This document shows positions 8,672-34,683 of a stretch of 38,749 bases of DNA, in pieces. Under the pieces are notes generated by a model. That model did not search any database. It was not told the origin of the DNA and saw only the letters and a list, made by a program, of their open reading frames with translations. Source of the stretch: a virus (Duplodnaviria; Heunggongvirae; Uroviricota; Caudoviricetes); the IMG/VR virus record IMGVR_UViG_2579778884_000012. One strand, given 5' to 3'. How positions within the stretch are numbered: position 1 is the first letter of the stretch; the number at the start of each line of letters is the position of its first letter. The position numbers and the translations under genes are program-made.

Positions 8672-9781
8672 TTAATCTGAGTCCATTTTCCCAAACTCTG
8701 TCAGGCCGAAAACGGAGCTACCAGAAACATGAGCTTGTAAGCCCGCTTCCTGCATGTCACTTAATTCAACTTCTTGGCTATCCTCTAATCCGATAGAGAA
8801 CATGGGATAGGCCCAGTTCCAATTCGGATCAGGAACCAAACTATTATTCTCTATCTTGAAAAAGCTGACCATGAGATGATGCCTTCCCTGTATCGCCTCT
8901 TCATCATTGATGTTGACCAGTACACCAAAGTGCTTGTAGCCGGCTTGTCCATTCTCGAACATTTTTATCTTGGTGCCGTTTCTGAACATCCAAAAAGAAT
9001 GATTTCCAGTGGAATCAGCGACCTGCAAGTTATCTTCGTCAATTTCCCAATTAAGATATTGTTTGATATCAGACTTTGGTTTGAGTTTTTCGTCATTACT
9101 AAACCATTGTATTGCCGGAAGTGGAAGGTGAAGACCTTCCGGCTGGGGAGGCTGACCTGCAGCAATGGAATGCATGATCTCTGTCATTGATGGAAGCCCC
9201 ATCAAATGCCATACATCATGGATATCCTTTTTAAGTATAAGAAGCCCTTTGGATACACCATCCGCGTAAGTTGACTTTAAGCGGACTAGTATGTCCTTGT
9301 TACCATCTTTGTCGAGGTCTTCAATGTTTACTGAAGAAGCCACAACCTCGTCGTCCCCTGCGTCTGGGATGATTGCCCAATACCCAATATCGTAGAATCC
9401 AGGTCTGCCAACCACCTTATCTATCAAACTCTGTCCAGAGGGCTCGAAGACCATCAGGAAACGGCTAAGGGCACCATTTGTGCTCACAGTTCTTCCGTAG
9501 ACTACAACGGAGTTTGAGGTGCTTAGATCGAGAGACTCGCTAGCCACTGAGTCAAACGCCACTGAGTCCAAATGTGTGGCAAGCTGCTGCTGGATGCACT
9601 CCCGAGCCATTTCAACTAATTTTTCGCGAACATCAGCAGATCGTATTGGCTGTGAAGTGAAATGGAAAAGCCCTACTGTAGCCGCTATGCCTATTATTCC
9701 CGAAATAACGGTACTTAGAACCTGCTCCTTTACCACTTTCACAACTTTCATCAATAGCTTCTTCAACTTCACTTCAGGCAC
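8672..9781 (-). CDS. Hypothetical membrane-anchored protein (accessory cargo at the Z/fun position), up to 369 aa
   Basis: Long AT-rich ORF between FI and G. One N-terminal hydrophobic helix (VLSTVISGIIGIAATVGLFHF) followed by about 320 aa of soluble domain with no motif I recognise. The track start is a GTG directly after an in-frame TAG; the first ATG is 10 codons in (9751), so the true start is uncertain. Confidence 0.6.
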   Translation of the reverse strand: MPEVKLKKLLMKVVKVVKEQVLSTVISGIIGIAATVGLFHFTSQPIRSADVREKLVEMARECIQQQLATHLDSVAFDSVASESLDLSTSNSVVVYGRTVSTNGALSRFLMVFEPSGQSLIDKVVGRPGFYDIGYWAIIPDAGDDEVVASSVNIEDLDKDGNKDILVRLKSTYADGVSKGLLILKKDIHDVWHLMGLPSMTEIMHSIAAGQPPQPEGLHLPLPAIQWFSNDEKLKPKSDIKQYLNWEIDEDNLQVADSTGNHSFWMFRNGTKIKMFENGQAGYKHFGVLVNINDEEAIQGRHHLMVSFFKIENNSLVPDPNWNWAYPMFSIGLEDSQEVELSDMQEAGLQAHVSGSSVFGLTEFGKMDSD

Positions 9782-15785: not shown

Positions 15786-16562
15786 ATGGTCAGCTATAAT
15801 GTGACTAATGTGTGGGAGCTAATCGTTTTGTATCTTTTGGTCTTTGCAGTATTAGCATTTTTTAGCTTTGGTAAAAGTAACCTTATGAGGCTTATTGCAC
15901 ATTATTTCAAATTTGGATATTCAGACAAAAAATTAAAAAGACTGGACCGCGAGTGGCGCGACATTCAACTATTTAAAATACTTAACGGAATCAATGTATC
16001 AGGCATCGAAGATGTGAGAATGATACAGCAGGGGCTGATTGATGGAAAACTAAAAACATCGGATTTTTTCCTTACTCGCTTCTGGGGAGACATAACAGAA
16101 CCGCCATGCATCACAAAAACAATGAGTGCAGTCCTGGCCGGAATTCTTTATATTATCTTCGCATGTTGCATACACAACGAGCAATCTGCCATAGTAGAGG
16201 ATGCCATAGCCATACCATATAAAAATATGATGTACCATGTTTATAATGACAAGGTTCTTTTGTTCTCCGACAATAAAACAGATAAGTTCTATAAAGCTTT
16301 TAGCATTGCCGATTGCAAGAGACTGCAGAACACTTTTGTAACAGACACACTTCCTGCAATCGCCTGCAATAAGCTCTTACAGCTAAACGAGGAGGACTCC
16401 GAATGGTTAAGTCAGGAGATTAAAGATAATAACAGCCACAGAAAAACATTATTAATAATATCCCTAATCTATTTCATTTCAGGTGCGTATTTTCATGAAA
16501 GGAGATCACTCAATAACTTCCATCGAGATCGGGTAATAACATTTGAACAGATCGCTGAATAA
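15786..16562 (+). CDS. Hypothetical integral membrane protein (accessory gene at the orf30 position), 258 aa as it stands
   Basis: AT-rich ORF on the strand opposite the late genes, with a good RBS (AAGGAGAGCGTA ATG). Three predicted hydrophobic helices (about residues 12-29, 114-130, 230-245). Its last seven codons and stop lie inside the inferred IS terminal repeat. Confidence 0.65.
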   Translation: MVSYNVTNVWELIVLYLLVFAVLAFFSFGKSNLMRLIAHYFKFGYSDKKLKRLDREWRDIQLFKILNGINVSGIEDVRMIQQGLIDGKLKTSDFFLTRFWGDITEPPCITKTMSAVLAGILYIIFACCIHNEQSAIVEDAIAIPYKNMMYHVYNDKVLLFSDNKTDKFYKAFSIADCKRLQNTFVTDTLPAIACNKLLQLNEEDSEWLSQEIKDNNSHRKTLLIISLIYFISGAYFHERRSLNNFHRDRVITFEQIAE

Positions 16563-16676: not shown

Positions 16677-18218
16677 ATGCCAACAGTTCCAATTTCTATG
16701 AGAAAACTTAAAGAAATTCTTAGGCTTAAATACGGTGTTGGACTCAGCCATCGACAAATTGGTCGTAGTCTTGCAATCTCCCCTTCCGTTGTATCCAGAT
16801 ATGCTAATCGGGCGGCTCAACTTGGCATAAAGCAGTGGCCCTTACCTACAGGATGGGATGATACAAAACTAAAACATGCGTTCCTTCAGACCCAGGTTAA
16901 GATGAAGAAGCACTCTCTGCCTGACTGGGCTACAGTACACCGGGAACTGCGTAATAAATGCGTGACGCTGCAGCTACTCTGGGAAGAATACTGTGAGCGT
17001 AATCCAGGCGGTTTTTACAGCTATAACCATTACTGCCGGATGTACCGTGAATGGCTCAAAACCACTTCACCATCAATGCGTCAGGTACATAAAGCTGGCG
17101 AAAAACTTTTCGTTGATTACTGTGGACCTACCGTTGGCGTTACCGACCCTGAGACCGGAGAAATAAGAACTGCTCAGGTCATCGTAGCTGTTCTCGGGGC
17201 ATCAAGTTACACATGGGCAGAGGCCACCTGGTCTCAGCAGCTTGAAGACTGGGTGATGAGTCATGTTCGCTGCTTCCAGTGGTTGGGTGGCGTTCCTGAA
17301 CTTGTTGTTCCGGACAATCTGAAAAGCGCCACATCCAGGGCATGTAAGTATGATCCTGACGTTAACCCTACCTACCAGCAGATGCTTGAGCATTATAATG
17401 TCGCAGTTTTGCCTGCGCGGCCACGTAAACCGAAAGATAAAGCCAAAGCTGAAGTTGGCGTTCAGGTTGTTGAACGCTGGATCATGGCCCGAATCAGGCA
17501 TGAGATCTTCTACAGCCTTGCATCGCTTAATCAGCGCATTCGGGAGTTGCTGGAAAGACTGAATAACAAAATAATGCAGAAGTTGGGTTATTCACGTGCA
17601 GAACTCTTCATCCAGCTTGATAAACCCGCACTGAAGCCTCTTCCTGAAGCCAGTTACAGTTACACCCTGGTGAAGAAAGTCAGAGTTCATGCCGATTACC
17701 ACGTGGAAATCGACAAACATTACTACTCGGTTCCATGTTCGCTGTTAGGCCAGCAACTGGAAGCATGGATCTCCGGAGAACTGGTAAGACTCTTCAATCA
17801 GGGGCAGGAGGTTGCTGTGCACCCGCGCAAGCGTACTTATGGCTACAGTACCCGCAACGAGCACATGCCTGAAGCTCATCGACAGCATGCCACCTGGACG
17901 CCAGAGCGTCTTCTGGAATGGGCGGGGCACATAGGCAGTGAAACTCATAGTTATGTGCTTCATATACTGAACTCTCGTCCACATCCGGAACAAAGCTATC
18001 GCTTCTGCCTTGGACTCCTGAACCTTCATAAAAAATACAGTAAAGCCAGACTTAATGCAGCATGTGCAAGAGCTCTGAAAACAAAGGTATGGCGTCTGTC
18101 AGGTATTAAATCGATCCTGGAAAAAGGTCTGGATAAACAACCTGTTCAGGATCCAAAACCAGATCTGTTATCCACGATGGAACACGAAAACGTACGCGGC
18201 AGTGAGTATTACCACTGA
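16677..18218 (+). CDS. istA: IS21-family transposase IstA, 513 aa
   Basis: N-terminal helix-turn-helix (LSHRQIGRSLAISPSVVSRY), central DDE-type integrase-like region, followed 12 bp later by istB; typical IS21 layout. Confidence 0.85.
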   Translation: MPTVPISMRKLKEILRLKYGVGLSHRQIGRSLAISPSVVSRYANRAAQLGIKQWPLPTGWDDTKLKHAFLQTQVKMKKHSLPDWATVHRELRNKCVTLQLLWEEYCERNPGGFYSYNHYCRMYREWLKTTSPSMRQVHKAGEKLFVDYCGPTVGVTDPETGEIRTAQVIVAVLGASSYTWAEATWSQQLEDWVMSHVRCFQWLGGVPELVVPDNLKSATSRACKYDPDVNPTYQQMLEHYNVAVLPARPRKPKDKAKAEVGVQVVERWIMARIRHEIFYSLASLNQRIRELLERLNNKIMQKLGYSRAELFIQLDKPALKPLPEASYSYTLVKKVRVHADYHVEIDKHYYSVPCSLLGQQLEAWISGELVRLFNQGQEVAVHPRKRTYGYSTRNEHMPEAHRQHATWTPERLLEWAGHIGSETHSYVLHILNSRPHPEQSYRFCLGLLNLHKKYSKARLNAACARALKTKVWRLSGIKSILEKGLDKQPVQDPKPDLLSTMEHENVRGSEYYH

Positions 18219-18229
18219 TACGGGATCCA

Positions 18230-18979
18230 ATGATGAATCATCTTTACGAACAACTGACCGCACTTAAACTCACCGGCTTCCGTGATGCGCTTAAAAAGCA
18301 ACTTGCTCAACCGGGCACATACCAGGAGCTGGGCTTCGAAGAACGCCTGTCATTACTGACAGCAGAAGAACTAACCTGCCGTGAAAACAGGAAGGCAGAG
18401 CGTCTGATCAAACATGCACGGTTCAGACTTAATGCTGAGTTATCAAAGCTGGATTATCGTAACAATAGAGGGCTGGACAGGGCCCTCATCCGTTCACTCA
18501 GTCAGGGAAACTGGTTAACCCTGAAACAAAATATTTTACTGACCGGGGCCACCGGCAGCGGTAAAACGTTCCTGGCATGTGCACTTGGTCATAATGCCTG
18601 CCGACAGGGATACAAGGTCTACTATTATCGCCTTAAAGCGCTGATGGAACAGTGCTATCAGGGGCATGCTGATGGAAGATACAGCAAACTTTTGACCAGG
18701 CTGAATAATAGCGATCTGCTGCTTCTGGATGACTGGGGGCTGGAACCTCTCTCATCAGAACAGCGTAGCGACCTGCTGGAAATAGTGGATCTGATGTACC
18801 AACGAGGCTCAATCATCGTAGTGAGCCAGTTGCCGGTGGAAAACTGGTACAAAATGATCGGAGACTCCACACATGCGGATGCCATCCTAGATCGACTGGT
18901 TCATGGCAGTATCAAGATCGAACTTAAAGGAGAATCAATGCGGAAAATACAATCTCCGTTGACCGAAGGAGATCAGTGA
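18230..18979 (+). CDS. istB: IS21-family ATP-binding helper protein IstB, 249 aa
   Basis: Walker A motif GATGSGKT and Walker B LLLLDDWG; DnaC-like AAA+ fold typical of IstB. Confidence 0.88.
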   Translation: MMNHLYEQLTALKLTGFRDALKKQLAQPGTYQELGFEERLSLLTAEELTCRENRKAERLIKHARFRLNAELSKLDYRNNRGLDRALIRSLSQGNWLTLKQNILLTGATGSGKTFLACALGHNACRQGYKVYYYRLKALMEQCYQGHADGRYSKLLTRLNNSDLLLLDDWGLEPLSSEQRSDLLEIVDLMYQRGSIIVVSQLPVENWYKMIGDSTHADAILDRLVHGSIKIELKGESMRKIQSPLTEGDQ

Positions 18980-28827: not shown

Positions 28828-29769
28828 ATGCAAGGTGAAGTTGACGAACAGCAACCAAATGAGATTATTTCGGAGTTTGGATACTATCCAGTAGAAGTTA
28901 ACATTGAGACTGAACAATTTTCTTTGCGTACTTTACCCGGTCTTATTGAGAACGTGGAACGTATTAACAATGATAAAAACGTTGTTAATGGTTGGATATA
29001 CCCTGGGAATCGAAAGGTATATAACCTTAATGGTGACACATGCACAATGCCTTATAGTTACCGAGTATTCGGCATGCCCAAAACGCACACACTAAAATTA
29101 AAAAACACATCCTCGTTAGAAACTCTCAACTTTGTTGTGTGGTGCCTCTCTTTTTTCAAGGGTATAAGATTGACAACCACTGACGCTGGTTTTCTTGATG
29201 CAACCACTATCAAGCCCACTAAGTTAACCGACTTTATTCTCGTTGGATGCTCTGAAAAAGAAGTAATAGAGCTAGCACTTAACTATATAAAAGACAAACA
29301 AAAAGATGATCGCTCCATTAAAAGAATAGCTGCGGTGATACACTCCCTATTCCTGTCACATAACCCACTATACCTTTCCTTTGAGAAATTCCAGTATCTT
29401 TATATGGCTCTTGATTGCTGTTTTGCTATAGCATGGGATGAAAGGGATAAAGTCATTAAAGAGAAAAAACCATCTCATCAAAATAGAGTATATTGGATGT
29501 GCGAAAATTACGGTGTAAAAATCCCGTCATGGGCAACAGATGAATGTAATGTTTCAGTTATACGCAATGATAATTTTCATGAAGCCATTTTTAATGGGCA
29601 ACCGCTTGGTTTCTCTAGTATCAATGATTGTCAATATGGTAGCGATATATTGCTACAAATGCAGGCTCTGGTATGTCGTCTACTAGCGGCAATACTCTCT
29701 GTAAATGATCGTAAATATATCGCATCTACAATCAGCTCGATAGAGTACCATTCATTAAAATTAACTTAA
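28828..29769 (+). CDS. Hypothetical protein with C-terminal HEPN-like R-x4-H motif (accessory cargo at the old/tin position), 313 aa
   Basis: AT-rich ORF with RBS GGAGAAAGTT ATG. Residues 246-251 are R-N-D-N-F-H (CGC AAT GAT AAT TTT CAT, 29563..29580), the HEPN-type motif, about 60 residues from the C-terminus. Not P2 Old or Tin by size or sequence. Confidence 0.6.
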   Translation: MQGEVDEQQPNEIISEFGYYPVEVNIETEQFSLRTLPGLIENVERINNDKNVVNGWIYPGNRKVYNLNGDTCTMPYSYRVFGMPKTHTLKLKNTSSLETLNFVVWCLSFFKGIRLTTTDAGFLDATTIKPTKLTDFILVGCSEKEVIELALNYIKDKQKDDRSIKRIAAVIHSLFLSHNPLYLSFEKFQYLYMALDCCFAIAWDERDKVIKEKKPSHQNRVYWMCENYGVKIPSWATDECNVSVIRNDNFHEAIFNGQPLGFSSINDCQYGSDILLQMQALVCRLLAAILSVNDRKYIASTISSIEYHSLKLT

Positions 29770-30088: not shown

Positions 30089-30769
30089 CTACATCTTTAT
30101 TGCATATTTATTAAAAGACGCCCAGTTCAATAAAAAAACATTATTCATATACCATTCAATATAATTTTTATTTTTAGATTGACTGTCAAGTAGCACACAA
30201 ACATCAACCTGTTTATCAATCAATTTTGCAATATAAACCACAAACTCAACACTCGAATATCTCTTTGTGCCTAGCAAATATAATATTTCATCTGACAAAT
30301 AATTAGACTCATGTGAAAAGACATTATCATTTAACAAAATCAACCCGCCAATCGAGTCATTTAAATCCAAAACATCCTTTGTTGCATTTATTTGCTTATT
30401 AGCTTCCTTAACTATCTTTGTTTTAATATTTTCATAAGCAAAGTTCATTATATCATTTCTAAATCGCTTTGAGTCTGGGTGTCTTTTTATCAACTCTTCT
30501 AAATGAATAGCACCATGCCAGTTTTTTGCAAGCCAACTATCAGTTTTAACCAACTCATTCAGTTTATCATTGACATTCTTGACCCTGTCAGAAAAAAGAC
30601 TTTTCATCTCCAAAATTATCTTTTTATTATCAATAAGATAATCTGCCATCTTGCGATTCTGACCATCCTTCATCCGGAACTTATGATGAATATCATCAAT
30701 AGAAATCCCTTTTTCATGCTCAACAATGAATCTCTTAACATTGTTTTCTAATTCGCTGTATTGTTTCAT
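30089..30769 (-). CDS. Hypothetical protein (accessory cargo), 226 aa, probably co-transcribed with the upstream DUF2158-like gene
   Basis: AT-rich Lys/Asn-rich ORF; start 27 bp after the small upstream gene's stop, with a GGGGGA RBS; no motif I recognise. Confidence 0.6.
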   Translation of the reverse strand: MKQYSELENNVKRFIVEHEKGISIDDIHHKFRMKDGQNRKMADYLIDNKKIILEMKSLFSDRVKNVNDKLNELVKTDSWLAKNWHGAIHLEELIKRHPDSKRFRNDIMNFAYENIKTKIVKEANKQINATKDVLDLNDSIGGLILLNDNVFSHESNYLSDEILYLLGTKRYSSVEFVVYIAKLIDKQVDVCVLLDSQSKNKNYIEWYMNNVFLLNWASFNKYAIKM

Positions 30770-30796: not shown

Positions 30797-30988
30797 TCAC
30801 TTACGTGGACGACAAAGCATACCACTTTTACTCTCTGCTATTTCCAGTAAATCAATGGAGAATGACTCCTCGTGCAAAACTCCTTCTTTATCATGCCAAA
30901 TACATTTAGCATGAGTTTCAGTAGAGTCAGATACAGTCATTTTAAATCCACCGCTTTTCAAACAAACAACATCTGCAGGCTTTAACAT
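30797..30988 (-). CDS. Small DUF2158 (YodC-like) family protein, 63 aa
   Basis: From the internal Met with RBS GGAGATAAAA ATG: MLKPADVVCLKSGGFKMTV...CIWHDKEGVLHEESFSIDLLE, matching the DUF2158 pattern (V-x-LKSGG-x-MTV ... C-x-W) as I remember it. Track ORF extended by 28 codons. Confidence 0.55.
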   Translation of the reverse strand: MLKPADVVCLKSGGFKMTVSDSTETHAKCIWHDKEGVLHEESFSIDLLEIAESKSGMLCRPRK

Positions 30989-31114: not shown

Positions 31115-33400
31115 TTACTCAAATTGATGCCAGAATCCCGACCACTCATCAGCGACCGGATACGTGAATTTTTTCCCGTCATAATTTACGGTCGCGCCAC
31201 GCGCCAGCGCCTCAAGCTCCCATCGCTGCGGCCTGATACCGTTCTGAGCAAGGTCAACGCGGATACGGGTGATTTGCAATCGTTCAGACCGGGTCAGTCT
31301 GGCCGATGGCGCTATTTCATGCGGTTTTAACGGGCTTCCGTTTCTTTGCTGACGGTTTGGTCTTCTCAGGCCGTGTTTTAATGCACCTCTGAGCGCCCTC
31401 ACGACCTCCGGGTCATTCCATTCGATAACACCGTCATCTACCAGATTAAGCACTGCTGCGGCGTGCTCAGAAGGTGTGGGAGCCGGTAACGAAGTATCAC
31501 CACCGGTGAGCTTTCCACAGTTATTGACAGGACTCCGAGGCGCGGCGATGCCGCTTTTTAAAGTCAAAGGCTCAACGACCGGCACTTTCGGAACAATGCG
31601 CCAGTCCGTCGTTCTGGTGATATGAATATGACGCGCGCCGAGATGCGGCGCGTAAATGCCGACCACTCTCTCGACTTCTTCCTCGTACTCGTTAACGTCA
31701 TCCGACGGGCTACGGGCGACCCTGACAGTCTGACAATCGCGCGGGACATTTGCCCCGCCCTGCGCGCTGATATACAACGCAAAATCACCACTGTCTGCAG
31801 CGGCGCGTGCAGCCTCGACGCGCTCGTCAAACTCATCAGCAATGCTGACGCCGCGAGGCAATTTGCGTAGTTCACGGTAAGCCCCCATTGTCGGCAGGCC
31901 AACCGTTTTAAATTGCGGAATGCGCCACGTTGACGCCCATGCGGTAACAGCCGCGGCAGTGTCTTTCAGCGGCCTGCCGGTATCGTTATCGAGCTGACCA
32001 TCCAGTGCATAGCCATCGATGTTTTTTGAGATGTATTTCGCGATATACCCTGCAGCACCGCCCCGGTTAAGGTGTTTTGCCTGAAAACGGTTTCGCGCAG
32101 CTCCTCTTTCGTCGCCATCCTCTTTGAGCGCGTAGCGACGCATGATTTCAATAATCTGGTTACGCTGGCGTGGATTACAAAAAAGCATCATATGCCAGTG
32201 CGGCGTTCCGTCGTGGTGTGGCTCGACGACTCGCAAACCGTAGACCTGTAAATCATTATCCTTGAATGCCGTGCGCATCAGGCTCCAGATACGGCAGAGA
32301 TAACGCTGCGCATCCTTTGGATTAAATGCCTCATCGTTCCAGCCGTGATTAAGCTGAACGGTTTTACTTTCGCCTTTTCCGACCTGACGTGTCGGGTGAT
32401 ACTTTGACGGCGCGGTCAGCGTGATAAACATCCCCACATCACCCTCTGCGGCGGCGTAACGCTCAATACCGGCAATGGTGTTCATCAGCTCCATCCGGCG
32501 AATTTCAGGATTAGAAATACTGCCCATCACCTTACTGATAAGGTCGATGCGTTCGCCGGTTTCCCTGTTTTCAAGGTCACACGATTTAAGAAACTCCAGA
32601 TTTGCCTGGCGGCGCGCACGCACATCACGAATGGCATGTTTACTGGCATAAGGAGAACGGTCTTTATTGACCTCCCCGACAGCAATCAGTAACGCCTCAT
32701 GCCAGCGCATACGCTGGCCTTTAAGCTGATGAGTCCACCACTCATCGTTAAACAGACGGGCAATGGCAGAATATGCCTGCCTCGTGGTTATCTGTCCTTT
32801 ACGGTATTTTTTCCAGTAGAGCGGGGAAATATTGAAAGCACGTGCAGCGCCAGCAACATGACCATACAGGTGAGTCTGCGCCTCATCCGTAAACAGCGAT
32901 TCTTTTTCGCCATGTGCATCAACCCATGCATCGCAGAGTTCCTCATACATCATGAAAAGCTGCGATGAGATACGGGCGGCAAACTTTTTCAGCTCCTTGT
33001 CATTCATTCCAGGCAGGCGCGCATAGTGGTCACGCTCTGCCAGAAATAGCAACGACGCGTCGGTGTTCATTTCATGGCGCTGATTCACGCGCTCAATGCG
33101 CGGCCATAAACGACGCTGAAAAGTAGATGTGAGGAAATAAAACCCGTGCACCGGGCTTTTATTGCGCCGGATGTAGTCATAGCGTGAAGTAAACAGCGAG
33201 CGCAAAAAGTAAGGCAGGCGGTTAATCGTGGATAAAACACCTTGCACCTGACGCATCTCGTCACGTGTAAGGGGTCTTTCGCGCCCGACGGCCTCGCGTG
33301 GCGCGTTCCATGCATAAGCACCGGTAAACGCCTTACCGGTGCCTGCAGCAAATGCTGACGGAGGTACGCAGGTGTATTGCTCCTGGAAAGAATGACTCAT
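31115..33400 (-). CDS. A: Replication initiation protein gpA (rolling-circle endonuclease), 761 aa
   Basis: 761 aa equals P2 gpA; position after the early small ORFs. Confidence 0.9.
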   Translation of the reverse strand: MSHSFQEQYTCVPPSAFAAGTGKAFTGAYAWNAPREAVGRERPLTRDEMRQVQGVLSTINRLPYFLRSLFTSRYDYIRRNKSPVHGFYFLTSTFQRRLWPRIERVNQRHEMNTDASLLFLAERDHYARLPGMNDKELKKFAARISSQLFMMYEELCDAWVDAHGEKESLFTDEAQTHLYGHVAGAARAFNISPLYWKKYRKGQITTRQAYSAIARLFNDEWWTHQLKGQRMRWHEALLIAVGEVNKDRSPYASKHAIRDVRARRQANLEFLKSCDLENRETGERIDLISKVMGSISNPEIRRMELMNTIAGIERYAAAEGDVGMFITLTAPSKYHPTRQVGKGESKTVQLNHGWNDEAFNPKDAQRYLCRIWSLMRTAFKDNDLQVYGLRVVEPHHDGTPHWHMMLFCNPRQRNQIIEIMRRYALKEDGDERGAARNRFQAKHLNRGGAAGYIAKYISKNIDGYALDGQLDNDTGRPLKDTAAAVTAWASTWRIPQFKTVGLPTMGAYRELRKLPRGVSIADEFDERVEAARAAADSGDFALYISAQGGANVPRDCQTVRVARSPSDDVNEYEEEVERVVGIYAPHLGARHIHITRTTDWRIVPKVPVVEPLTLKSGIAAPRSPVNNCGKLTGGDTSLPAPTPSEHAAAVLNLVDDGVIEWNDPEVVRALRGALKHGLRRPNRQQRNGSPLKPHEIAPSARLTRSERLQITRIRVDLAQNGIRPQRWELEALARGATVNYDGKKFTYPVADEWSGFWHQFE

Positions 33401-34398
33401 TCACATACACCGGCATAGACACTACTGCAAACTGACTTATCATTCACCGAAGCCAGCAAATCAAACTGTGCCCCGCCACGCGTGGTCATCGCCCAGTCAC
33501 GATAAGACTCAATTCCGTAAGCATCGACAGTAATAATATCAATGCGGCGTTCCGCACGACGCGGGTCATGAGTTGACGGGAAGAAAGTAGAATTTCCGCG
33601 TCTGGAGCATGCGGCGACAAGTCGCTCCCATTCCGCAACACGCTTAACCTCTTCCGGCCAGCGACTAAAAATTTCAGCTAATTCAGACTTTCTGGCGTGG
33701 ATGCAGGGCATACAACCGACACGACTGCATCCCTGCTGGTATAACGGATTAGGTTTAATTCCATGACGTCTTGCAAATGCAAATACCTCCTCATGCGTCC
33801 AGTTCAGAATAGGACGGTATACATGGAGCCCGGGCGTATTGTCCGCATCCTCTTCCCAGGCAGGCAGACCCGCGCGCGCAGGAGACTCCTGAGCGCGAAT
33901 CCCCTGCCAGCTAATTACCTCATCAAACTCATTAAGCGCAGGTAACACGACCTGAGTACGTACTGGCTCATGTTTAAGGTCAAAAGTGCAAAATCTGGCT
34001 TTAGTGGAAGGAAATCGCCCTTTCCACATGCACAAATCAAGAAATGGGATACCAGTAGGCTTGAGAATTTCCAGCGCACAATTGATGCGCTCTGCCGCTT
34101 CCCCCGGAGACATTCCGCACTCTTCAACCAGAGAAACAGGCCATTTCTCAGCAATAAACTTGCGCTTACCTTCAATCTGTCGGGAGAAGTCAGCTTTAAC
34201 CCGTTTAACCGGCCCGAGTCGGTTCTCCAGATAATCGAGATACTCCATTGTCTGCGGATGCTCATGCCCGGTGTCTGCAAAAACCGGCAAAAAAATGCAC
34301 ACCGCTTTCAATACCAACAAGCCATTGAGCAAGGCTATCCTTTCCGCCAGAAACAGAAATAATATTGATAGAGCTTTCAGCTCGGCAGCGGGTATCAA
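33397..34398 (-). CDS. PAPS reductase-like (adenine nucleotide alpha-hydrolase superfamily) protein, up to 333 aa
   Basis: Resembles the phosphoadenosine phosphosulfate reductase family often annotated in prophage early regions; N-terminal 40 residues hydrophobic; overlaps the A start by 4 nt (ATGA). Family assignment is by eye, from memory. Confidence 0.5.
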   Translation of the reverse strand: MIPAAELKALSILFLFLAERIALLNGLLVLKAVCIFLPVFADTGHEHPQTMEYLDYLENRLGPVKRVKADFSRQIEGKRKFIAEKWPVSLVEECGMSPGEAAERINCALEILKPTGIPFLDLCMWKGRFPSTKARFCTFDLKHEPVRTQVVLPALNEFDEVISWQGIRAQESPARAGLPAWEEDADNTPGLHVYRPILNWTHEEVFAFARRHGIKPNPLYQQGCSRVGCMPCIHARKSELAEIFSRWPEEVKRVAEWERLVAACSRRGNSTFFPSTHDPRRAERRIDIITVDAYGIESYRDWAMTTRGGAQFDLLASVNDKSVCSSVYAGVCE

Positions 34399-34401
34399 CT
34401 A

Positions 34402-34683
34402 TCATTTAGATTTCCCCGCACAGAGAAACGCAGTCAGACACTGCTGACCGAGCTGCTCAACCTGAGAGCTCAGCGCCTCAAAAGAGACAGCGTTACCGCT
34501 CAAAATATCGTGATGGATCAGACCGGAAACGAGCTGGTTTAATTTGGGGTAATAGCCGACAACATCCAGCCACTCTTTACCGGCATTCTTCCCGGTTTCA
34601 GCGGTCTTTCTCTCCTGCAAAATGAACTGAAAACGGTCATTTGTGACGACATAACGCTCGCCAATTTCAATACGAATACTCAT
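34402..34683 (-). CDS. Early-operon hypothetical protein, orf83-like position, 93 aa
   Basis: Small ORF in the cox-B-A early operon, overlapping its neighbours; call is by position only. Confidence 0.6.
   Translation of the reverse strand: MSIRIEIGERYVVTNDRFQFILQERKTAETGKNAGKEWLDVVGYYPKLNQLVSGLIHHDILSGNAVSFEALSSQVEQLGQQCLTAFLCAGKSK

Follow-up and report, generated by a model that had tools for sequence, protein, structure and literature searches.

Directly ahead of the replication gene A, in the early operon of a P2-type prophage, lies an open reading frame (ORF) of 333 codons whose predicted product begins with a strongly hydrophobic segment and continues as a protein of the PAPS-reductase family. 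The ORF belongs to a 38,749-nucleotide stretch of viral DNA (Caudoviricetes; IMG/VR record IMGVR_UViG_2579778884_000012), the whole of which is referred to here as the window. An earlier note, made from the sequence of the window, had described a PAPS-reductase-like gene of roughly 333 aa at this place and had suggested that its true start might be located further in. This raises the question of whether the ORF is a gene at all and, if it is part of one, what the complete protein would do. The 333-codon ORF is no independent gene but the 3' portion of one that has been broken. The locus as a whole is very probably best explained by the very recent inactivation of an accessory early-operon gene of the phage 186 orf84 (CP84) type, together with the function inferred for its intact form. 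The features on which this explanation is based are collected in Table 1.

Table 1. Coordinates of the broken gene, its parts and the adjoining genes in the window.
Feature	Position	Strand	Description
Whole pseudogene	33397..34405	(-)	Phage 186 orf84 orthologue, inactivated by a frameshift; PP-loop protein within the PAPS-reductase superfamily; intact form 335 aa
333-codon ORF, TTG start	33397..34398	(-)	Codons 1-37 are the PP-loop region read out of frame
Body of the 333-codon ORF			From about codon 38 on, genuine protein body by alignment: ADTG, C139, K144, R170, CxxC, C-terminal Cys
5' fragment, original frame	34262..34405	(-)	ATG at 34405; 47 codons including SVSGGKDS; premature TGA at 34264..34262
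Lesion, T7 homopolymer (A7 on the plus strand)	34289..34295	(-)	Insertion of 1 nt; intact relatives have T6
Earliest ATG in the body frame past the premature stop	34246..34248	(-)	13 nt downstream of the stop; from start-codon scan
Replication gene A	31115..33400	(-)	761 aa, Phage_GPA type; ATG overlaps the pseudogene TGA as ATGA
DUF5405 gene (P2 orf83-like)	34402..34683	(-)	Upstream of the pseudogene; Pfam DUF5405, E=6.8e-13

The assignment to the PAPS-reductase family holds, as a profile search returned a significant match of the 333-aa product to PF01507 (PAPS_reduct; E=1.3e-31, 110.4 bits, gathering cutoff 22.5 bits), but this match does not begin until profile position 21. A fusion built across the T tract, with one extra Phe built in, also passes the cutoff and scores 122.4 bits, and its match reaches profile position 3. 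Two halves of one Pfam domain sit in two overlapping frames, and the PP-loop residues expected of such a protein are indeed encoded, but in the separate 47-codon ORF, outside the 333-aa frame. The extra T shifts the frame after codon 38, so that translation from the original ATG ends after 47 codons; since the PP-loop is thereby cut off from the rest of the enzyme, a full-length protein is impossible by normal decoding. The true start is located not further in but 7 nt upstream of the TTG and in the other frame, where it overlaps the TGA of the DUF5405 gene as ATGA (junction sequence AAATGATAG). The stop/start overlap with A, which had been described earlier, is confirmed at the opposite end (33397..33400).

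The hydrophobicity reported for the first 40 or so residues is real as a property of the translation, with a GRAVY of +1.79 over the first 37 residues against -0.43 over the remainder, but it is a property of out-of-frame DNA. Because the PP-loop is encoded there in the other frame, and because removal of one T restores the protein, the hydrophobic N-terminus is a wrong-frame reading and represents no signal or membrane segment. The limits of the Pfam match and the GRAVY values led to the rejection of a membrane or signal N-terminus as a frame artefact. The 333 open codons, the strong PF01507 match and the hydrophobic beginning could still be read as a real protein, translated from TTG 34398 or further in and carrying a genuine hydrophobic or membrane N-terminus in front of a PAPS-reductase domain. 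Nevertheless, the hydrophobic codons are PP-loop-coding DNA in the wrong frame, profile positions 1-20 are missing from the match and present in the other frame, and the true ATG is the one that overlaps the stop of the upstream gene. Moreover, an SGGKDS N-terminus and a length of about 334-340 aa are found in all 76 intact viral homologues and in the 120 database homologues listed, which leaves this reading with practically no credence.

When the window is aligned with phage P37 and E. coli C11, the lesion itself shows as a single-base gap in both of these, T6 versus T7. When one T is removed, the 335-aa protein is restored, and the repaired gene is identical to that of Yersinia phage P37 (1008/1008 nt) and differs from that of E. 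coli C11 by one substitution. The T7 tract and an identical int-yegR junction are common to nine complete E. coli genomes, which carry one prophage lineage at yegQ/yegR, and T6 is read where the same allele occurs elsewhere, in five further genomes and two phage genomes. Given that the difference is one base within a T6/T7 run, and that homopolymer indels are the commonest error in long-read assemblies, the extra T might be taken for a sequencing or assembly error in a gene that is intact in the organism. This explanation is very unlikely, since the same T7 recurs in the same prophage, at an identical site, in nine complete genomes that were obtained by different laboratories in different countries, and the same allele is read as T6 elsewhere; the T7/T6 pattern fits inheritance within one lineage and does not fit random error. 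The frameshift status is not new, as identical RefSeq genomes are already annotated in this way, and in E. coli 4/0 the same sequence is labelled 'phosphoadenosine phosphosulfate reductase family protein, frameshifted'. Independent disruptions occur in 4 of 80 viral homologues.

The T tract could also be thought to act as a site of programmed +1 frameshifting or as a phase-variable switch that tunes the enzyme or, via coupling, A. As judged from the sequence, the exact wild-type ...VHFLPVF... would be restored if tRNA-Phe slipped by +1 at the first UUU of CAU-UUU-UUU-G, and both the T6 and T7 states are found in nature. Yet the 76 intact viral homologues all lack a T run of at least six at the site, the homopolymer is missing there in the 79% allele and in phage 186, the residues H-F-L encoded by the tract fall in a variable linker, and T7 is limited to one prophage lineage. 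Furthermore, a run of 7 nt is short for efficient slippage. Programmed frameshifting was rejected because the homopolymer is allele-specific, and a regulatory role of the tract is considered highly improbable.

The gene that was inactivated is a known accessory gene, the intact form of which is found in some P2-type prophages as well as in Yersinia phage P37. The window gene shares the identity of the orf84 orthologue group and its position 5' of A with a stop/start overlap, but lacks the intact frame of about 335 aa owing to the additional T. As the earlier note had stated, nothing but small ORFs lies between B and A in canonical P2 (orf80-83), and an orf84-type gene is missing there; a comparison with the early regions of P2 and 186 supports its absence from P2 but not any novelty of this prophage, since the gene is already known as 186 orf84. 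It is not universal among P2-like phages: of 5426 complete E. coli genomes, 67 carry it and 1724 carry a P2-type A gene. Among the P2/186-like viral loci, A is the next gene in 25 and lies within the next two genes in 29. The P2-type prophage of the window also carries an ISEc12 insertion.

With regard to the intact protein, PHROG 424 ('PAPS reductase') matches residues 1-334 (E=2e-84), and a set of residues is invariant across 51 sequences at 36-53% identity, namely SGGKDS (or nearly; residues 19-24 of the intact protein), ADTG, K144, R170, C139, C231/C234 and C326/C334. From motifs, fold and genomic context, the protein would be an ATP-using PP-loop adenylating enzyme that probably holds an Fe-S cluster through C139 and C231-x-x-C234, as suggested by the alignment, and that would carry a reactive C334 on a flexible C-terminal tail. 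It would most likely adenylate a nucleic-acid substrate and then transfer sulfur or another group to it, as part of an early DNA-modification and anti-restriction repertoire beside DNA methyltransferases (MTases), and it would not reduce PAPS for cysteine synthesis. We infer that the intact family comprises nucleic-acid-modifying enzymes and not sulfate-assimilation enzymes. A more specific and only tentative proposal is that the 186-Orf84/PHROG-424 clade may consist of ATP-dependent Fe-S enzymes that modify phage nucleic acid and act against restriction alongside or together with phage DNA MTases; secondarily, in P2/186-type phages, the frame may serve as a translational 'launch pad' for A.

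The alternative for the intact family is a genuine CysH/APS-type sulfonucleotide reductase, i.e., an auxiliary metabolic gene (AMG) that boosts sulfate assimilation in the host, as it is labelled in the virome literature. Among solved structures, the protein matches CysH and APS reductases best, and residues of the APS/PAPS-binding type are kept (ADTG, K144 and the R170/S174/R177 loop), which would be compatible with a sulfonucleotide substrate, as are the CxxC motif and a C-terminal Cys. The sequence VGCMPC aligns with IGCAPC of M. tuberculosis and IGCEPC of P. aeruginosa, both Fe-S APS reductases, and the CxxC pair of putative [4Fe-4S] ligands is present at the motif level. However, the family consensus in the alignment is vSGGkDSt, a canonical ATP-type loop, whereas the CysH loop (sSSFGIQAA) is degenerate and of the non-ATP type. 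The catalytic C-terminal Cys of CysH sits in ECG[LI]H, while the tail of the intact protein, with its invariant Cys residues, is C326-x-S-x-Y-G-L-C334-E335 (...C-x7-C-E). Moreover, the protein falls far under every curated CysH/APS cutoff, as shown by the scores in bits against the respective cutoffs for PRK02090 (66.8/154), TIGR02055 (55.2/235.3), TIGR00434 (45.6/165.1), TIGR02057 (41.7/254.2) and TIGR00424 (14.9/553). The AF2 model (pLDDT 93) has CysH/APS reductase as its nearest folds, followed by TtuA-type sulfurtransferases, but the TM-scores are only 0.4/0.6 and the model contains additions of about 55 aa and about 95 aa. A weak PDB sequence match was obtained to 21fy_C ('PptA'). Finally, E. 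coli hosts already possess cysH, and cys genes were never found beside the family while DNA MTases often were. A sulfonucleotide reductase is thus regarded as rather unlikely.

The neighbourhood of the family is consistent with a link to nucleic-acid modification or anti-defence, which had been raised in the earlier note and to which the motifs would also conform. Of 43 P2/186-like viral loci, 22 have a Dam-type MTase directly upstream; within this group, such adjacency is phylogenetically non-independent. Among 33 divergent loci, the commonest annotated neighbours are C5 (8) and N4/N6 (3) MTases, and in phiE125 the family gene is preceded by an overlapping MTase gene and followed by one of ParB-like type. 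In one natural fusion, a DNA MTase of PHROG 799 (E 3e-50) is linked to a PAPS-reductase-like domain, although this fusion is a single cluster representative without genomic context and could be a gene-calling artefact; nine of the ten longer family members examined contain no fused domain. No sulfate-assimilation genes were found in four phage neighbourhoods or in 76 viral loci. MTase adjacency could also reflect insertion hotspots shared by cargo genes of the early operon (PMC2920897). In the literature, no experiment was found that supports the nucleic-acid-modification or anti-defence link, nor anything relevant on 186 orf84, IbrA/IbrB or PptA, and the labels given there to clade members, sulfur AMG or moron, come from annotation only.

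The lesion may also have consequences for A. According to the phage 186 record, translation of A requires translation to the end of orf84, and by this analogy the frameshift in the window may reduce A expression; such a polar effect is an extrapolation from the database note on 186. The T7 frameshift may lower A expression and prophage replication unless re-initiation takes place at the ATG past the premature stop, which is a candidate re-initiation codon by the same analogy. In addition, a weak GGTG Shine-Dalgarno-like element is located 7 nt before the A start, so that A might be translated independently. RNA folding at the orf84-A junction gave no significant structure (z = -1.6), and a scan for consensus terminators found none just inside A comparable to tM1 of 186.

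As a feature of this window, the broken gene is of little importance and mainly documents the early decay of a P2-type prophage. Its relatives call for caution in viromics, where the family is widely scored as the sulfate-assimilation AMG 'cysH'; the ATP-type PP-loop, the missed CysH cutoffs and MTase neighbours without cys genes would rather point to nucleic-acid chemistry. If the frame does act as a launch pad, a T7-type frameshift would affect the replication competence of the prophage. Phage 186 (E. coli) and P37 (Yersinia) provide tractable systems for studying the family, and the record of orf84-A coupling in 186 makes the natural T6/T7 pairs apt for the question of translational coupling.

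Among known systems, DndC is described as sharing the SGGKDS motif and as having ATP pyrophosphatase activity together with a [4Fe-4S] cluster (PMC6435447). The intact protein shares with DndC, SspD and BrxP this adenylation loop, a nucleic-acid context and conserved Cys residues that would be suited to an Fe-S cluster, and the PADLOC defence models rank SspD first (E 8.6e-22), followed by BrxP (1e-15) and DndC (6.5e-07). It differs from them in that the matches span only the central third of the protein and in being a solitary phage gene: the DndC equivalog TIGR03183 scores 22.6 bits against a cutoff of 290.4, over residues 132-212 only, and none of the partners DndA/D/E, SspA/B/C, DUF4007, PglZ or BrxL turned up in the annotation of the window, in four phage neighbourhoods or in a Pfam census of the neighbours from 76 viral loci. 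CysH and APS reductases are the nearest solved folds to the intact family, which shares with them ADTG, the Lys residue, the residues of the Arg loop and a Cys near the C-terminus, and with APS reductases also the GCxPC motif, whereas its ATP PP-loop, its C-terminal motif, the absence of a cys-operon context, a large helical insertion (~74-128) and a C-terminal extension (~240-335) set it apart. The allele and the flanking genes are the same in Yersinia phage P37 (QIW90028.1) and E. coli WP_000634534.1, which have T6 and an intact 335-aa protein, unlike the window. Another of the closest known settings is that of phage 186, whose Orf84 (CP84; NP_052288.1) is 82% identical in amino acids to the window gene over its full length and is recorded as 'unknown function; not essential'. 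In both, the gene is the last one ahead of A in the early lytic operon, follows the DUF5405 gene and overlaps A as ATGA, with the last ~30 nt and the junction being nearly identical; however, 186 orf84 is intact and belongs to an Eganvirus backbone, whose A gene is shorter, whereas the frameshifted copy of the window resides in a P2-type (Peduovirus-like) backbone.

The ORF that the earlier note had described as a PAPS-reductase-like gene ahead of replication gene A is present with a TTG start codon, and its 333 codons score E=1.3e-31 against the Pfam profile PF01507 (PAPS_reduct). As proposed, its TGA and the start codon of A share the sequence ATGA, and only small ORFs lie in the canonical P2 B–A interval; these are orf80–orf83, with orf83 directly abutting A. 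The match starts no earlier than profile position 21, and the PP-loop that is absent from this ORF is encoded by a 47-codon ORF in another frame, whose start codon shares ATGA with the TGA of the preceding DUF5405 (P2 orf83-like) gene and whose translation ends at the TGA at 34264..34262. When the two frames are fused, the match reaches back to profile position 3. In alignment, the sole difference from close relatives is a run of seven T at 34295..34289 (-) (T7), against six (T6) in E. coli C11 and Yersinia phage P37. Deletion of one T in silico yields a 335-aa ORF whose DNA is identical to the P37 gene at 1008 of 1008 positions and differs from the C11 gene by one substitution. Therefore, the hydrophobic N-terminus is real as a composition (GRAVY +1.79 for residues 1–37 vs. 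-0.43 for the rest), but, since a single T separates the two frames, it is what the PP-loop region gives when translated in the wrong frame and not an N-terminus of the protein itself. Likewise, the suggestion of a true start further in does not hold, as the real ATG sits 7 nt upstream of the TTG. The PP-loop peptide is uncoupled from the protein body and, thus, the enzyme is lost. The feature is a very recent frameshift pseudogene of the orthologue of coliphage 186 orf84, a known gene whose lesion is already flagged in public annotation, where RefSeq labels the E. coli 4/0 copy, identical in sequence, as 'phosphoadenosine phosphosulfate reductase family protein; frameshifted'. The earlier observation is thus confirmed in part, and its interpretation supported in part.

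Coordinates of the features discussed in the window
Feature	Position	Strand	Remarks
Cargo ORF	8672..9781	-	classical P2 variable locus
Cargo ORF	15786..16562	+	orf30 position
ISEc12, IS21-family element	16677..18979 (roughly 16.6–19.0 kb)	+	RefSeq name of close copies
Cargo ORF	28828..29769	+	classical P2 variable locus
Cargo ORF	30089..30769	-	classical P2 variable locus
Cargo ORF	30797..30988	-	classical P2 variable locus
Replication gene A	31115..33400	-	761 aa; ATG within ATGA overlap
333-codon ORF	33397..34398	-	TTG start
5' fragment, 47 codons	34262..34405	-	other frame than 333-codon ORF; from ATG 34405, encodes MIVDTRCRAESSINIISVSGGKDS...

The T7 form is found at 100% identity in nine complete E. 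coli genomes, which come from several countries, and the T6 form in five other E. coli genomes and in the genomes of two different phages (four records). Because the integrase–yegR junction is 100% identical in the nine T7 genomes, these carry a single prophage lineage between yegQ and yegR, which speaks against a homopolymer error; the distribution matches one inherited mutation rather than random error of this kind. A programmed event at a conserved slippery site was rejected, since the homopolymer is not kept in homologues: at the tract site, a run of six or more T is absent from all 76 intact viral homologues, phage 186 and the 79% E. coli allele have no homopolymer there, and the H-F-L encoded at the tract lies in a variable linker. 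Elsewhere in the gene, 4 of 80 viral homologues (L052, L054, L057, and L087) have independently acquired stops or frameshifts, as expected of a dispensable gene, and the orf84-type gene decays repeatedly in prophages. E. coli Ecol_542 (NZ_CP018970.1) has the 100% identical integrase–yegR junction, yet falls outside the 67 genomes positive for an orf84-type gene; its early region may be different or deleted.

Coliphage 186 Orf84 is 82% identical to the intact form of the window protein, and its gene occupies the same slot, with a DUF5405 gene before it and A directly after; the ATGA junction is shared, and the 3' ends are almost identical. This type of gene is uncommon among P2-type prophages, occurring in 67 of 5426 complete E. 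coli genomes (14 with the window allele and 53 with the 79% allele), while a P2-type A gene occurs in 1724. Unrelated temperate phages, e.g., Burkholderia phiE125, Serratia Parlo, and Pseudomonas Riah, carry homologues with 44–59% identity in their early regions. The family (PHROG 424, E 2e-84) comprises 3066 clusters (50% identity) at E<1e-3 and 350 at E<1e-30.

The 186 record describes orf84 as being of 'unknown function; not essential. translation to end of orf84 appears necessary for translation of A protein', and annotates just inside A a terminator, tM1, that is active when A is untranslated. If A depends on orf84 being translated to its end, as in 186, the window frameshift would be polar on A. 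The first body-frame ATG after the premature stop, 34248, lies 13 nt downstream, and re-initiation there could return ribosome flow to the ATGA junction, with a product that would be inactive for want of the PP-loop. The A start is preceded at 7 nt by a weak GGTG element. A perfect 9-bp inverted repeat, CACCGGTAA-GGCG-TTACCGGTG, is located about 60–85 nt inside A (about 33320..33345, -) and extends further in the RNA fold; it lacks a T-tail and is not called by a terminator scan. P2 carries the repeat too, with a loop that differs slightly, and tM1 of 186 lies at a similar distance inside its own A gene.

ISEc12 is inserted in the late region, between the orf30-position cargo gene and gene S, and encodes IstA (513 aa; rve and Mu-transpos_C_2) and IstB (249 aa; PF01695). 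Apart from this element, which it lacks, the prophage of E. coli 4/0 is identical, with coordinates shifted by 2586 bp, and the exact junction was found in no member of the complete E. coli genome collection. This acquisition is consistent with continuing prophage decay. Five cargo ORFs, among which DUF2158 is the sole Pfam match, occupy the Z/fun position, the tin/old position beside A, and the orf30 position, and are candidate lysogenic-conversion or defence genes. In the 4/0 prophage, RefSeq annotates an IS3 transposase remnant adjoining the Z/fun-position gene.

Among 43 P2/186-like viral loci, A lies downstream of the family gene in 29 (at +1 in 25) and a Dam-type D12 methyltransferase upstream in 22 (at -1 in 16). 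At 33 divergent loci, 128 neighbours lie within two genes, and the annotated families commonest among them are C5 DNA methylases (8) and N6/N4 methylases (3). The family member of phiE125 is overlapped at its start by a DNA methyltransferase gene and is followed by a ParB-like gene. Moreover, a 560-aa family representative, P0257, fuses a DNA methyltransferase domain (PHROG 799, E 3e-50; motifs DPGCGKG and NPPF) to an Orf84-like PAPS-reductase domain, a putative fusion seen in this one sequence among ten longer members examined. The adjacency may, nevertheless, reflect shared cargo hotspots (PMC2920897). Phage homologues have been presented as sulfate-assimilation morons or AMGs by annotation alone, in studies whose authors themselves urge validation (PMC2920897, PMC9144972, PMC13369170, bioRxiv 10.64898/2026.02.18.706556). 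A search of the accessible literature found neither experimental work on the 186-Orf84 clade nor any paper about 186 orf84. The residual interest lies in an uncharacterised family, probably mislabelled as cysH.

Across 51 members (36–53% identity), the (near-)invariant residues are S19-G-G-K-D-S24, A-D44-T-G46, E48, C139, and K144, followed by R170/E173/S174/R177, R228-V-G-C231-x-P-C234, K239, C326, and C334-E335 at the extreme C-terminus. A confident AlphaFold model of the intact protein (pLDDT 93.2, pTM 0.91) adds to the PAPS-reductase core a helical insertion (~74–128) and a C-terminal extension (~240–335), of which about 15 final residues form a flexible tail. Among solved structures, CysH and APS reductases have the closest folds (TM 0.4 by query, 0.6 by target); FAD synthetase/FMN adenylyltransferase, the CysD subunit of ATP sulfurylase, and TtuA-type Fe–S sulfurtransferases come next. 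Chain C of PDB 21fy, 'PptA' (270 aa), matches the family profile weakly (E 1e-4, profile positions 184–248). Although several APS-binding-type residues are kept, a true PAPS/APS reductase is quite unlikely: every curated CysH and APS-reductase model scores two- to forty-fold under its cutoff, the SSFGIQ of CysH corresponds in the family to SGGKDS, the canonical ATP-pyrophosphatase loop, its C-terminal motif is unlike that of the reductases, and no cys gene is adjacent in the P2/186-like and divergent viral neighbourhoods examined. The favoured reading, somewhat short of an even prospect yet far better placed, is an adenylating enzyme that depends on ATP, has an Fe–S cluster and a tail cysteine, and would modify nucleic acid within an early DNA-modification module of the phage.

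As for known systems, the Fe–S ligands of APS reductases align with the family GCxPC. Among defence-system models, SspD is the top match (E 8.6e-22), and the score of 22.6 against a DndC equivalog cutoff of 290 places the intact protein outside that group; DndA/D/E, SspB/C, and BREX partners are absent from the window annotation and the viral neighbourhoods. DndC is described as carrying exactly the SGGKDS motif found in the 186-Orf84 family, together with a [4Fe–4S] cluster and ATP pyrophosphatase activity (PMC6435447). These likenesses of sequence suggest a chemistry akin to that of DndC and SspD, in a protein that does not belong to those systems.
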